Part shown: piece by piece, positions 2,947-4,741 of the stretch
Layout of the letters: every line of letters begins with the position of its first letter
How positions within the stretch are numbered: position 1 is the first letter of the stretch
IMG/VR virus record: IMGVR_UViG_3300011982_000004
Span: 1 to 6,937 of that record
Reading direction: 5' to 3' (one strand)
From: a virus
DNA length: 6,937 nucleotides
Translations under genes and position numbers: made by a program
The notes under the pieces: generated by a model
Databases searched by the model: none
What the model was told of the DNA's origin: nothing
What the model saw: the letters and a program-made list of their open reading frames with translations, nothing else

Positions 2947-2966
2947 AAAATCGAAAAATTTTGAGA

Positions 2967-2974
2967 CAAATATA
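2967..2974 (-). promoter_or_regulatory. Candidate Bacteroidota-type -7 promoter box TATATTTG (TAnnTTTG), ~20 nt upstream of the peptidase ATG
   Basis: Plus-strand caaatata at 2967..2974 is TATATTTG on the gene strand. This is an exact match to the 6 fixed positions of the Bacteroides -7 consensus. There is no properly spaced -33 TTTG. Several such matches per genome are expected by chance in AT-rich DNA. Confidence 0.3.
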
Positions 2975-3043
2975 CAAAAATAAAATTTCAGATAATACAT
3001 AATATGATAATTTATTAATGTAAATTAACATTGTAGAGATTTT

Positions 3044-3134
3044 AGGGCGTTTGGACCACTGTCAGTTTTACCATTTATATCAAGGGGTAGGTACGCAGCA
3101 CGGGGGGCGTGCGCCACTAATGTGGAAACTGATA
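3044..3134 (-). other. GC-rich structured block A: candidate viral-strand replication origin (phiX174-like nick motif flanked by hairpins)
   Basis: The virion-sense strand reads CCTACCCCTTGATATAAATGG (plus coordinates 3071..3091). CTTGATAT is at 3084..3077. Compare the phiX174 origin CCCCCAACTTG^ATATTAATAAC. Flanking helices counted by hand are 3060-3068/3126-3134 (8 WC + 1 G-T), 3071-3074/3122-3125, and hairpin 3095-3102/3108-3114 (7 bp, 1 bulge, GGGGG loop). Confidence 0.3.
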
Positions 3135-3159
3135 ATCAAAACAAACGCTAATAAATTTT

Positions 3160-3350
3160 GCCTCCGGCGGTCTTGGATGGGGTGTGCTGCGCAAGCTTGC
3201 ACTTCACTACGACGCAGTGCGCTACATTAGCATTCCGCGCGCTACGCTCCGTGGGAGAGCGGTATGCACTGCGAGACCGTTTCGCATCCTGTAATGCGGA
3301 TGCTACACTATCCGACCTAATTTGTGTTCGCAAGCTCACCTAACGAACAG
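3160..3350 (+). ncRNA. GC-rich structured block B: candidate structured ncRNA, or an ssDNA complementary-strand origin. Strand is tentative.
   Basis: GC is about 57% by hand count against AT-rich flanks. There is no credible ORF, although both strands are stop-free, as expected for GC-rich non-coding sequence. Multiple helices are present: 3173-3179/3309-3315 plus 3182-3186/3304-3308, 3213-3221/3265-3273, 3230-3238/3259-3267, 3247-3250/3254-3257, 3270-3275/3281-3286, 3284-3289/3298-3303 and 3325-3330/3344-3349. A near-consensus -7 box TAAATTTTG lies on the plus strand at 3152..3160. Confidence 0.3.
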
Positions 3351-3359
3351 CACATAAAC

Positions 3360-3384
3360 AAAAAAGTGTGACCGAAGCCACACT
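3360..3384 (-). terminator. Rho-independent terminator ending the sense transcription unit
   Basis: The gene strand reads AGTGTGGC-TTCG-GTCACACT followed by TTTTTG. This is an 8-bp stem (one G-U) with a UUCG tetraloop and a U-run. It overlaps the stop codon of the 37-aa ORF. On the plus strand the stem has an A-C mismatch and no T-run follows. Confidence 0.7.
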
Positions 3385-3496
3385 AATTAAAGAGGAAATA
3401 AACAATTAAGAATAAAACCGCATTAATCAACAACGGAATTACCTTCCAAGCAATAATAACACAAATAGCAACTAAAACTATTTTCTTTGCTGACAT
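3383..3496 (-). CDS. Tiny single-pass membrane peptide, 37 aa (MSAKKIVLVAICVIIAWKVIPLLINAVLFLIVYFLFN)
   Basis: Hand translation from ATG 3496..3494 to TAG 3385..3383. The peptide has a basic N-terminus followed by a long hydrophobic stretch. It is on the same strand as all the other genes and is immediately followed by the terminator. It is below the ORF-track length cutoff. A T-rich sequence can mimic hydrophobic peptides, so coding status is unproven. Confidence 0.4.
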   Translation of the reverse strand: MSAKKIVLVAICVIIAWKVIPLLINAVLFLIVYFLFN

Positions 3497-3501
3497 AACA
3501 A

Positions 3502-3588
3502 TTAATTAACACCTAAAGAAGTGAGCAGCGCAGTTAACGCTGCAATGGCTACTTGAGCCAACACTTGCAAAAAACTTTTCTTTTTCAT
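3502..3588 (-). CDS. Tiny single-pass membrane peptide, 28 aa (MKKKSFLQVLAQVAIAALTALLTSLGVN)
   Basis: Hand translation from ATG 3588..3586 to TAA 3504..3502. The start lies 37 nt downstream of the VP2 stop. The MKKK N-terminus is followed by a hydrophobic helix of ~20 residues. The next small ORF starts 5 nt after its stop. Confidence 0.4.
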   Translation of the reverse strand: MKKKSFLQVLAQVAIAALTALLTSLGVN

Positions 3589-3625
3589 TGCAAAATTACA
3601 TTAAAAAATTAAACAAACAAAATTA

Positions 3626-4741
3626 TCATCTAAATCTTGGCACACGAGCAGGTCTCGACATCTTAGCATTACGATACCGCATTTGTGACTTTAGATTTTT
3701 CCGATTAGCACGCGAATTCATAACATCATTGACAGAGCCAGTAACTTCACTACCACCATGAAGAATCTCACCAGCTTTATCAAGGCCATAATCCAACATC
3801 ACATTATCATGATATGCCGAGTTATAATCGAACAATCTACGCGCCTCGCGATAATTATATTCAGAACCACGAGAATTCCAATAAGCCGAATTAGCTTCAT
3901 GCTTAGCAACATTCACATTAGCATAAGATAGCGAAGCACTCGCATCAGCGGCACGAGCTTCAGCAGCAGCCTTACCAATCATAGCACGCATATTGGCAGC
4001 ACCAAACAATCGAACAAGATTATTATCCAAGTCAGCACCTTTTTTCTGCGAACCAAGAAGAGCAGCTTGTGCAGCATTCAACTGATTTTGGACACCTGGA
4101 GCTTTAATGCGCTCATCCCAAGTCAATATACCAATATCATTAGTCTGTTTTAACTGAGTTATCTGCTCATCAACCAACTCTATCTCCTTGCGGATCTTAT
4201 CTTTATCAGCTTCAGTTTTGGCACTCTCAGCTAACTGCTTTTGCAACTCGGCCTTATTACGCTCCAACTCCGTAACATTACGAATGGTCTTCGTAACCGT
4301 ATCGGCATTAACATTACGCGCATCAGCTTCATTCTTGGTAATTTCCGACTGTGCAGTAAGGCCTTGAATTAACGAAGAGGCAGCAGAAGCAGCACCATTA
4401 ACAACACCGGAATAATCCGTAGGCTGTGTGGTAGCAACTGATTGCTGATTACCAGCATTAATTTGGCCGAGCATCATATAAGGGTTTAAACCAGCATTAT
4501 TGAACCGACCTACTTGCGAACCAGGCGTATTATACGCATTAGCTCTCTCTACTAATTGCTGTTGTAACGCGTTATTCTTATCATTACTTCGCTTATTCAT
4601 AACAGCACTTGTAACAGTACCAGCAGCGGCAATAATAGCAGGAATAGCAGCAGCAACAGCCGGAGCAATATGCTTACGATTATCGATTTGAGCGAGGCCG
4701 CAGCCTCGTTCAATCGAATTTAATCTATTAATATAAGACAT
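3626..4741 (-). CDS. VP2: Minor capsid / DNA pilot protein VP2 (H-like), 371 aa
   Basis: The N-terminal hydrophobic segment is APAVAAAIPAIIAAAGTVTSAV. It is followed by AYNTPGSQVGRFNNAGLNPYMMLG, the AGLNP signature common in Microviridae VP2. The central part is charged and coiled-coil-like (ELERNKAELQKQLAESAKTEADKDKIRKEIELVDEQITQLKQ). Its position after the capsid gene also fits. Confidence 0.85.
   Translation of the reverse strand: MSYINRLNSIERGCGLAQIDNRKHIAPAVAAAIPAIIAAAGTVTSAVMNKRSNDKNNALQQQLVERANAYNTPGSQVGRFNNAGLNPYMMLGQINAGNQQSVATTQPTDYSGVVNGAASAASSLIQGLTAQSEITKNEADARNVNADTVTKTIRNVTELERNKAELQKQLAESAKTEADKDKIRKEIELVDEQITQLKQTNDIGILTWDERIKAPGVQNQLNAAQAALLGSQKKGADLDNNLVRLFGAANMRAMIGKAAAEARAADASASLSYANVNVAKHEANSAYWNSRGSEYNYREARRLFDYNSAYHDNVMLDYGLDKAGEILHGGSEVTGSVNDVMNSRANRKNLKSQMRYRNAKMSRPARVPRFR

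Follow-up and report, generated by a model that had tools for sequence, protein, structure and literature searches.

This phage is a small temperate single-stranded DNA (ssDNA) microvirus of an oral Prevotella-type bacterium. The GC-rich gap in its genome is a non-coding control region, both conserved and folded, which most likely contains the replication origins of the phage and adjoins the site of its insertion into the host chromosome. Within the window (the whole stretch of 6,937 nt that was analysed), the genome itself measures 6838 nt at an overall GC content of 40.6%. Its gene-free stretch runs from 2947 to 3382 (436 nt, 6.4% of the 6838-nt genome) rather than over 3001..3625 (~9%) as given in the first-pass annotation: the M15 gene has its true start at the ATG at 2946, not 3000, and on the other side there are two small hydrophobic ORFs conserved as protein, for which relatives encode like peptides (..LQIAVSALTALATALGVTN) and an exact look-up of the 37-aa ORF gave no record. 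The remainder of the genome is tightly packed, and since this gap is the only sizeable non-coding stretch it is also the only place where intergenic origins could lie. On the sense (packaged) strand, the order within the gap is terminator, exchangeable hairpin cassette, four-way junction, dif-like attP and promoter (Table 1). The GC-rich island reported at ~3044..3350 does exist between AT-rich flanks (GC 14% at 3001..3043 and 30.5% at 3351..3625), but at 52.4% GC overall, and 55.5% at 3101..3300, rather than the 57% first given. Its identity among relatives is 84%, against 71-75% for genes, and it consists of two parts, the junction and, upstream of it at about 3160..3340, the hairpin cassette. 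Both the terminator and the promoter box between which the island had been placed were located and are conserved. The terminator is kept in all relatives with covarying stems (AGCGTAGC/GCTGCGCT, GGTGTGA/TCACACC, GGGTGCGA/TCGCATCC), and the -7 box is kept as TATATTTGC.

Table 1. Features of the control region and its borders, listed in the direction of the sense strand (positions are those of the window)
Feature	Position	Strand	Basis or remark
Two small hydrophobic protein genes, 37 aa (3383..3496) and 28 aa (3502..3588)	3383..3588	-	ORF list
Intrinsic terminator, hairpin AGTGTGGC-TTCG-GTCACACT and T-run	3359..3384	-	Ends upstream transcription unit; 5' boundary of the region
Hairpin GTGAGC-TT-GCGAAC with tandem G.A/A.G mismatches, 5' end of type-A cassette	3324..3339	-	Pairing read by eye
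Conserved single-stranded motif ACACAAAttaGGTCGG, type A	3312..3327	-	Invariant alignment columns
Type-A hairpin GTG-TAGCATCC-GCATTACA-GGATGC-GAAAC, conserved loop TACAG	3279..3308	-	RNAalifold
Conserved motif CTCGCAGTGCATACC, type A	3261..3275	-	Alignment
Variable hairpin CGCTC/GGAGCG (3245..3261) and 40-nt insertion specific to the window's lineage (3205..3244)	3205..3261	-	
3' boxes common to all cassette types	3160..3202	-	Found in types A, B and C
AGCTTGCG box	3184..3202	-	
CCCC..AAGACC box	3169..3183	-	
GCCGGAGGC hairpin	3160..3168	-	
Four-way junction ('cloverleaf'), 71 nt, no linker bases	3062..3132	- (sense)	Covariation and fold
Junction stem P1	3126..3132 with 3062..3068	-	Closing stem
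Junction hairpin a	3114..3125	-	
Junction hairpin b	3094..3113	-	Outer 4 bp, bulged C, inner 2 bp, 7-nt loop
Junction hairpin c	3069..3093	-	Weakest helix, 91% of cells paired
Single-stranded motif CCCCTTGATAT, loop of hairpin c	3077..3087	-	Candidate Rep nick site after G3081
dif-like attP core AATTATCATAT-TATGTA-TTATCTGAAAT, 28 bp, 11-6-11	2985..3012	-	Just outside island; attP/attL/attR comparison
Bacteroidota-type -7 promoter box TATATTTG	2967..2974	-	Serves M15-Rep-capsid transcription unit

ORFs of ~60 aa (59-63 aa) are present on both strands of the island and had been read as nonsense; they were likewise rejected as genes here, as in relatives their frames are broken by 1-nt indels and they are further interrupted by 34-42-nt indels and a stop codon. 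The earlier failure to recognise tRNA, tmRNA or other known RNA signatures was borne out, with zero island matches at E <= 1 in an Rfam cmscan of both strands of the window and five relatives, and no tRNA or tmRNA genes found in the island by ARAGORN. In Bacteroides, promoters follow a -33/-7 consensus, with TAnnTTTG as the promoter consensus; there is no TAnnTTTG box on either strand of 3044..3350, and thus no hairpin that would rebuild host promoter boxes in the manner of an Frpo/ssi-type ssDNA promoter, so that a single-strand origin (sso) of the RNA-polymerase or Frpo type is not supported. There is also no terminator-like site 3' of the island ahead of the M15 promoter, leaving the island with neither a promoter box nor a 3' terminator of its own, as an independent ncRNA gene would be expected to have.

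The description of the island as helix-dense holds for the 71-nt junction, which is significant when folded as DNA (MFE z = -3.2) and covaries, but not for the island as a whole (336 nt; z = -0.96 sense and -1.59 antisense, not significant and no better than shuffled sequence) or for its type-A cassette part alone (z = -0.7, not exceptional). Conservation and covariation, by contrast, are clear. In an alignment of 14 distinct junction sequences, 98.3% of cells were paired, compared with 29-39% when the pairing was slid, and 7 pairs were compensatory, with both sides changed, a number reached in 2/500 shuffles; the covariation score was reached in 0/500. The junction folds independently as DNA in 11/11 non-permuted lineages. 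For the second clade, pairing was taken from these independent folds and the column count was dropped, MAFFT having set hairpin b out of register. A long-range pairing proposed by RNAalifold (GTCGG/CTGAC) was not adopted, being invariant, in competition with P1 and missing in types B and C. Stem P1 also covaries in distant genomes (CAGTTT/AAACTG versus CACTTT/AAAGTG), and the junction model (R1) reached distant members at E = 1e-4 to 2e-3. The core signature, i.e. the P1 closing stem, single-stranded CCTTG, N11-12 and AAAA(C/G)TGACAG, recurs where Rep is only 25-34% (~27%) identical. The full junction was found in 15 close genomes, and the core signature in at least 11 phage records together with L129, L130 and five IMG/VR contigs; the junction always follows the pilot-gene block. 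The element was not detected in phiHBP1 (a cultured B. fragilis microvirus), L099 or L101. Looser pattern scans returned mainly spurious hits: the match in L006 was a chance match in a coding region, 42 of the 47 metagenome matches listed and all 32 of the genome-collection matches listed failed the junction model, and most matches of two loose viral scans were also due to chance. In every lineage, including the permuted genome L097, CCTTG sits 11-12 nt 5' of the AAAA(C/G)TG stem arm, and this fixed geometry suggests a single factor reading duplex and single strand at a set distance.

The cassette upstream of the junction is modular. Its 5' hairpin recurs in L099, L100 (a 15-mer match, E = 0.05), L128 and L129, and in L002 with a compensatory change from G-C to A-T, with a perfect hairpin instead in L050 and L056. 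The larger type-A stem occurs in three versions (GCATCC/GGATGC, GTTTCC/GGAAAC and GCATTC/GAATGT) with 5 pairs changed on both sides, and the position of the variable hairpin is occupied in other lineages by a short hairpin of different sequence (CGCC-TTT-GGCG, GCGT-CTTTA-ACGC). The 3' boxes are also found beside the type-B hairpin in L129 and, as GAAACGACCCCATA..AAAGCC, in Prevotella plasmids. The cassette is therefore non-coding with conserved hairpins, as an sso would be: it has no conserved ORF and its main stem exists in three compensatory versions, the non-significant MFE z-score notwithstanding. Cassettes have been swapped between sister genomes, with cassette type incongruent with the flanking sequence: L003 carries type A and L009/L011 carry type B, between junctions that are 96-97% and flanks that are 90% identical, and the same incongruence is seen in L002/L010 and L004/L001.

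Exchange of the type-B cassette extends beyond phages, as 8 small mobilizable Prevotella plasmids contain an element with 76-86% identity to it, and the stems covary between the phage and plasmid copies. These plasmids carry a Rep_3 theta initiator and a MobA/VirD2 relaxase, which implies that their only single-stranded stage is conjugative transfer. The function common to both replicon types may thus be the conversion of ssDNA to double-stranded DNA, although the element occupies the spot where an oriT would be expected in the plasmids. All 23 type-B records lie on the gene-sense strand, and orientation is the same in all genomes, although it is inseparable from synteny. For the type-A cassette of the window there was no PLSDB match, a type-B/plasmid profile run with nhmmer scored below significance on the window, and a homology between types A and B seen by eye in the 3' third was unsupported by blastn-short and nhmmer. 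The plasmid argument therefore reaches the window through position and short sub-modules only, and the exchange among unrelated replicons of the same host that characterises sso elements is seen for the cassettes as a class (type B, in the 8 Prevotella plasmids) and not for type A itself. There was no sign that the island is host-derived, as had been suggested, with no match in PLSDB or the GTDB species representatives.

A mosaic of this kind could also arise if the cassettes were GC-rich hairpin elements of a MITE/REP-like kind, selfish or neutral and perhaps mobile via ssDNA, that pile up in the sole permissive non-coding slot. The shuffling of sub-modules, the growth of the slot to 540-960 nt in L092 and L097, and the presence of the elements on both phages and plasmids would fit such an origin. 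However, the elements keep one position and orientation in all genomes, as they do with respect to the mob gene in 3/4 plasmids, and neither target-site duplications nor a transposase were seen. Moreover, the island is better conserved than coding DNA even though packaging limits are tight in microviruses, and such an origin is therefore very unlikely.

Exchange of the cassettes likewise recalls the swapping of immunity regions, which raises the possibility of one or more structured sense-strand ncRNAs (immunity, regulatory or anti-defence), arising from a non-canonical promoter or from transcription past the terminator, and swapped like an immunity module. Covarying helices would fit RNA equally well, temperate microviruses have no recognised repressor, and the type-B element of the plasmids could be an sRNA gene. 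The absence of any Rfam family at E <= 1 on either strand of six genomes argues against this, as do the lack of a TAnnTTTG box on both strands of the island and its immediate upstream sequence, and the conserved intrinsic terminator directly upstream with none downstream. Furthermore, the fixed spacing from duplex to CCTTG and its retention in the permuted L097 resemble the site of a DNA enzyme. We consider ncRNAs improbable, and the independently transcribed ncRNA among the earlier candidates gains no support, given the absence of an internal promoter box and of an Rfam match and the location directly after a terminator. An attempt to read the folding strand from G.T versus C.A mismatches had a mixed outcome, wobble pairs not telling which strand folds; the folded molecule is nevertheless presumed to be ssDNA rather than RNA.

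The junction is kept at a fixed place in relatives with related Rep, as would be expected of a plus-strand origin. Of the 12 positions of the core CTTGATAT.AAT, read on the gene-sense strand, 11 agree with the annotated phiX174 origin, with the caveat that chance alone should produce the 8-mer CTTGATAT about once in each genome. Over the 30-nt phiX174 origin the junction site matches at 17/30, which is at chance level (local shuffles reach about 18), and in an unbiased scan of 16 genomes it was not above shuffles; the claim of similarity was accordingly cut to the short core. CCTTG is the only part of this core retained outside the window's clade, with no conservation of the bases that follow CTTG. 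The roles of junction and cassette could conceivably be reversed, the junction being a G4-type complementary-strand origin whose hairpins remain exposed when SSB coats the ssDNA and in which primase would start at CTTG, a few bases beyond the 3' side of hairpin b. The Rep nick would then lie elsewhere, e.g. in rep as in phiX174, and the cassettes would do something else. The G4 origin has hairpins followed by a short single-stranded initiation motif, a geometry that the junction matches, and retention of the junction across very divergent Reps, within Bacteroidales-associated phages, is as expected of a site read by the host. In addition, the rep genes of L096 and L108 hold 20-21/30 matches to the phiX174 origin, against a shuffle maximum of 20. 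The rep gene of the window, however, has no phiX-like site above chance, and the plasmids that transfer as ssDNA share the cassette and not the junction, the reverse of what a generic priming signal should produce. The absence of the junction from the plasmids bearing the type-B cassette instead indicates that it serves a need specific to microviruses, and we regard the reversed assignment as unlikely.

Next to the junction, at a distance of about 45-70 nt in the window, L096 and L100, lies the dif-like core. A 62.7-kb scaffold (L115) carries the whole genome as a prophage, 99.97% identical, in a Segatella oulorum-like chromosome, with window positions 2985..3010 duplicated at both prophage ends, and L050, L056 and L091 are independent att junction contigs. 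The attL and attR sites are simple reciprocal hybrids of one duplex core, the prophage genome is collinear, and none of the six ORFs examined has an integrase domain. Together with the 11-6-11 imperfect palindrome, these are the features of an XerC/D-dif attachment site. The single thrS neighbourhood recovered in a search for the empty attB (L123) diverges, after which the contig ends. An attachment or recombination segment, as first suspected, is thus present nearby and outside the island. Its constant proximity to the junction could mean that the folded region is a XerC/D recombination accessory or a folded ssDNA attP like that of the CTX phage, and not a replication element; Krupovic and Forterre noted that some Bacteroidetes proviruses contain a second dif-like sequence and pointed to CTX as a parallel (PMC3091885), which would favour such a role. 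This is barely plausible here, since attL and attR are plain reciprocal hybrids of a single duplex core in a collinear prophage, the dif-like core lies outside every predicted helix, no second inverted dif-like core was noticed in the island by inspection, and the cassettes also occur on plasmids not seen to integrate.

Minus-strand initiation in microviruses is expected to need an intergenic hairpin (PMC9865509, section 3.8), and sso elements are non-coding, structured and orientation-specific, being primed by RNA polymerase, primase or primosome (PMC4595007). Building on the observed conservation, covariation, cassette exchange, type-B plasmid link and att junctions, proteins may be provisionally assigned to the parts of the region and a nick position proposed. 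The four-way junction would be the plus-strand rolling-circle origin, at which the 595-aa phage Rep would recognise the P1 stem and flanking ACAG and cut the exposed CCTTG strand 11-12 nt away, probably after the G, like CAACTTG^A of phiX174. The upstream cassette, of type A here, would be the complementary-strand origin, whose hairpins would remain folded when SSB coats the incoming single strand and would attract the host priming machinery, yielding the double-stranded replicative form, while the adjacent dif-like core would be used by the host XerC/D recombinases for integration. A combined plus- and minus-strand origin is the best supported of the three candidates originally listed, on the grounds of conservation, covariation, motif-to-stem geometry, cassette exchange and the sister cassette shared with plasmids, and we place the pairing of a Rep-dependent plus-strand origin in the junction with a host-primed complementary-strand origin in the cassette at about an even probability. 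A broader proposal, offered tentatively and with rather less than even confidence, is that the junction is the Rep origin of Bacteroidales-infecting (Alpavirinae-like) microviruses, and that the neighbouring slot holds exchangeable 'ssDNA establishment' cassettes of which at least one type is traded with mobilizable Prevotella plasmids.

In the human gut and mouth, few phages are more abundant than microviruses, whose replication origins are essentially unmapped outside phiX174 and G4. The region provides a testable candidate for both origins in Prevotella/Bacteroides-associated lineages, i.e. a 71-nt junction with a candidate nick site and a cassette with a sister type shared with plasmids. 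We know of no sso described from Bacteroidota hosts; if the proposal is true, Bacteroidota would gain their first family of sso/ssi-like elements, and a non-coding exchange between Microviridae and plasmids would be documented for the first time. According to a recent survey, microviruses stand genetically apart from the mobile gene pool at large (PMC9239249), a view that a plasmid-shared non-coding cassette would qualify. The existence of the phage as a free circle and, at 99.97% identity, as a prophage of a Segatella oulorum-like chromosome gives experiments a point of entry, and ssDNA vectors for Bacteroidota could be built with these elements.

Several known systems resemble the region in part. 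The intergenic region of f1/M13 lies downstream of a terminator and comprises a packaging hairpin, minus-strand origin hairpins and the plus-strand origin. In the compact genome of the present ssDNA phage, too, one non-coding block follows a terminator, with several hairpins on the packaged strand and, as proposed, both origins side by side. However, the two regions do not resemble each other in sequence, f1/M13 belong to another phage family with another Rep, and a promoter-mimic (-33/-7) hairpin was not found here. The present region additionally holds a dif-like attP, and its proposed minus-origin part has been swapped between lineages. The plus-strand origin of phiX174 (CAACTTG^ATATTAATAACACTATAGACCAC, nick 4305/4306) belongs to the same virus family, is served by a HUH-type Rep and shares the short core, but lies inside gene A, has no multi-helix junction and is similar over 30 nt only at chance level. 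The complementary-strand origins of phiX174 and G4 (a primosome-assembly hairpin and three primase-read hairpins, respectively) illustrate intergenic hairpins as the accepted minus-origin solution (PMC9865509, section 3.8).

The sso of rolling-circle plasmids and ICEBs1 and the Frpo/ssi of conjugative plasmids are also non-coding, multi-hairpin elements of 150-300 nt with fixed orientation, and are swapped as cassettes between unrelated replicons of the same host, as type B is common to phages and to plasmids with an ssDNA stage (PMC4595007; PMC11541004). Unlike known sso and Frpo elements, the cassettes have no established sequence similarity to them and no promoter-like boxes, and type A is without a plasmid counterpart. 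Integrating elements dependent on XerC/D and dif (the Bacteroidetes proviruses BMV1-7 (Alpavirinae), the E. coli gokushovirus EC6098, CTX and VGJ) share the lack of an integrase gene, the 28-bp 11-6-11 core and hybrid att sites (PMC3091885; PMC7062461), although this likeness concerns 2985..3012 and not the island, and XerC/D dependence is presumptive here. The intergenic hairpins of the reekeekee- and roodoodooviruses likewise show nucleotide conservation and compensatory substitutions, and a minus-origin role has been proposed for them, but these are single hairpins of 13-64 nt in 3-kb genomes, whereas the present region combines a four-way junction with a modular cassette and is linked to both plasmids and an att site (PMC9865509).

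The window comprises a circular microvirus genome of 6838 nt plus a 99-nt terminal overlap, with all genes on the minus strand. The packaged strand of Microviridae has the same sense as the mRNAs, and the minus strand is therefore both the sense strand and the virion DNA. The peptides of the two small hydrophobic ORFs are kept in relatives and may be membrane or lysis-related proteins. For peptidase M15, the longest ORF opens at an ATG at 3000, but the att core and -7 box fall downstream of this ATG, so the real start (MKSINN...) is at 2946, which the gene caller chose as well. The gene-free gap is narrower than the span given in the first-pass annotation. In contig L117 (1-8720), M15 and the 60-aa ORF identical to those of the window are linked with a D12 methyltransferase and with ORFs 800-1100 aa long; either the assembly is chimeric or another element has a piece of a microvirus inside it.

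Features of the window, in order, and an example of the plasmid element
Feature	Position	Strand
Capsid protein (Phage_F)		minus
145-aa protein		minus
Pilot protein, 371 aa		minus
Small hydrophobic ORF, 28 aa	3502..3588	minus
Small hydrophobic ORF, 37 aa	3383..3496	minus
Non-coding gap, true extent	2947..3382	
Terminator	3359..3384	
Exchangeable cassette, type A	~3160..3340	
Four-way junction	3062..3132	
att core	2985..3012	
Bacteroidota-type -7 box	2967..2974	
Peptidase M15	start 2946	minus
60-aa ORF		minus
Rep, 595 aa		minus
Plasmid type-B element, example among plasmids L124-L127	L125:2990-3170	minus

The GC-rich island between the terminator and promoter is a real and worthwhile finding, with 52.4% GC over 3044..3350 and 55.5% at 3101..3300, against 14% and 30.5% in the flanks and 40.6% in the genome. 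Its ORFs of ~60 aa are not conserved: in relatives they are interrupted by indels of 1 nt and of 34-42 nt and by a stop codon. An Rfam check of both strands of six genomes at a permissive threshold found nothing, and ARAGORN gave no match. The description of the whole island as helix-dense did not survive folding (z = -0.96 and -1.59). The island is 84-85% identical in two saliva microviruses from GenBank, compared with 71-75% for whole genomes, and alignments including further members drawn from IMG/VR and metagenomes revealed that the 3' block and one box are conserved, with the 5' part variable.

The sense strand of the 3' block reads TCAGTTT / CCAC-ATTA-GTGG / CGCA-C-GC-CCCCCGT-GC-TGCG / TACC-(17 nt)-GGTA / AAACTGA, forming a junction of four helices (closing stem P1 and hairpins a, b and c) with zero linker bases. 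Standard pairs occupy 98.3% of cells across 14 distinct sequences, versus 29-39% with partners slid; both-sided changes occur in 7 junction pairs, a count equalled in 2 of 500 shuffles, and the covariation score was reached in none of 500. The inner helix of hairpin b was exposed by a C-G to G-C swap in L092, a microvirus with a Rep 60% identical. Minimum free energy folding with DNA parameters independently regained the junction in three lineages (z = -3.2, -2.9 and -3.3), and more weakly in two others. The weakest of the four helices is hairpin c, in which 91% of cells are paired; its loop holds CCCCTTGATAT.

Large unannotated gaps also follow the pilot gene in genomes with a Rep of just 25-34% identity, and these gaps contain the same design: the 5' arm of P1 is followed by one or two hairpins, then by CCTTG as a single strand and, 11-12 nt further on, by AAAA(C/G)TGACAG. 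A model built from the window's clade alone finds three of these distant members (E = 1e-4 to 2e-3). P1 covaries across them (CAGTTT/AAACTG versus CACTTT/AAAGTG), hairpin b is represented by at least five different stems, and all 11 non-permuted elements fold with one closing stem in common, leaving CTTG essentially unpaired. The design is permuted in L097, with the motif first and then a 13-bp AAAACTGACACG hairpin, but the 12-nt spacing is retained. This fixed duplex-to-strand geometry suggests that the junction core is an enzyme site.

In the phiX174 record, the origin annotated at 4306 reads CAACTTG^ATATTAAT, and the junction loop core shares 11 of 12 positions with it. In an unbiased scan with the 30-mer, the site scored at chance (17/30, shuffles ~18), and the bases 3' of CTTG differ between lineages; the candidate nick site in the loop of hairpin c is thus inferred rather than matched. 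Separately, 20-21/30 ungapped matches to the phiX174 origin lie inside the Rep gene at L096:6094-6123 and the equivalent site of L108, exceeding the maximum of 30 local shuffles. This site is a candidate alternative origin in that lineage, with no equivalent in the window.

The upstream cassette slot is filled by unrelated forms: type A, which the window shares with its relatives, types B and C, and a larger mosaic. In type A, one hairpin is well supported and occurs in three compensatory versions; a second hairpin is variable, the single-stranded motifs are conserved, and the thermodynamics are not exceptional. Microvirus L003 and the pair L009/L011 are 96-97% identical in the junction and 90% in the flank, yet carry types A and B, respectively, and L002/L010 and L004/L001 repeat this incongruence, so cassettes are exchanged through recombination. 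Short sub-modules turn up in varying combinations, including a GTGAGC-N-GCGAAC hairpin with tandem G.A pairs, a AGCTTGCG box, a CCCC..AAAG box and a GCCGGAGGC hairpin. The slot is enlarged in L092:3790-4330 (~540 nt) and L097:3950-4470 (>500 nt). Both enlarged slots contain numerous GC-rich hairpins, and that of L097 also has GAGCATCCCAGAAGTATTAACGA as direct repeats.

The type-B 5' hairpin, GGGGGTATAGGGGGC..GCCCCCATAGCG, is present in at least 23 records of microviruses, whose sources are human, pig, rodent and marmot, in every case in unannotated DNA and on the gene-sense strand. Its motif GGGGG-TATA-GGGGGC...GCCCCC (e.g. L009, L100:3795-3835) is invariant in these records and in the plasmids; one C5 run meets two competing G5 runs, so that pairing could alternate or a triplex could form. 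The whole type-B unit (~150 nt) has 76-86% identity to an element in eight Prevotella plasmids of 4-12 kb, which are genuine plasmids with a Rep_3 initiator, MobA/VirD2 relaxase and toxin-antitoxin pair, and covariation is seen in the stems when plasmid and phage versions are compared. In three of four plasmids the element lies ~200 nt upstream of a mob-type/relaxase-type gene, on the opposite strand. A theta plasmid is single-stranded only in conjugative transfer, so its need in common with a microvirus is conversion of incoming ssDNA to dsDNA, which suggests a role of the sso/ssi type (PMC4595007; PMC11541004); the main alternative is that the element is part of an oriT. The junction was not found in the Prevotella plasmids, as fits a phage-specific role. 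The plasmid link covers the sister type-B cassette only; the window's type A had no PLSDB match, nor did it significantly resemble the type-B profile.

An attachment segment had also been proposed; an att site does exist, 30-60 nt downstream of the island rather than within it. Contigs L050 and L056 match the window on the island side and then diverge into bacterial genes, and L091 is the opposite case, matching the M15 side. An exact M15 protein look-up recovered the whole genome, 99.97% identical, as a prophage between thrS and a peptidase-M6 gene in L115, a 62.7-kb scaffold whose host housekeeping proteins belong to clusters named Segatella (Prevotella) oulorum. Window positions 2985..3010 are present at both prophage ends, and the 28-bp core, AATTATCATAT-TATGTA-TTATCTGAAAT, is arranged 11-6-11 like a dif site. 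No integrase domain was found in six ORFs, and the arrangement fits integration by XerC/D, a mechanism that has been proposed for proviruses of Bacteroidetes (PMC3091885) and demonstrated in the case of an E. coli gokushovirus (PMC7062461). Directly left of attL, L115:7300-7930 contains a ~430-bp tandem duplication of the host thrS 3' end and downstream DNA, where a 48-aa thrS fragment is called in other contigs; this may be the scar of an earlier integration or excision. The central hexamer of attR in L056 (8925-9010) is TCCATA rather than TATGTA, and host-side arms differ between L050 and L056, which suggests recombination between non-identical cores.

No TAnnTTTG box occurs within the island on either strand, and a covarying terminator lies directly upstream with none downstream, which favours action at the DNA level, but covariation alone fits sense RNA and packaged strand equally, and wobble asymmetry is mixed. 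The earlier proposal of a noncoding RNA is left unsupported, as a less likely reading. Of the functions first proposed, combined replication origins are the best supported, and we infer, at about even confidence, that the junction would be a Rep-dependent plus-strand origin and the cassette a host-primed complementary-strand origin. No earlier description of the region was found in the microvirus literature examined or by searching text for the G-rich motif; the idea that conserved hairpins between microvirus genes are candidates for minus origins is already published (PMC9865509). Although a sequence member of none of the described families, the region would work similarly to the f1/M13 intergenic region and to plasmid sso cassettes.
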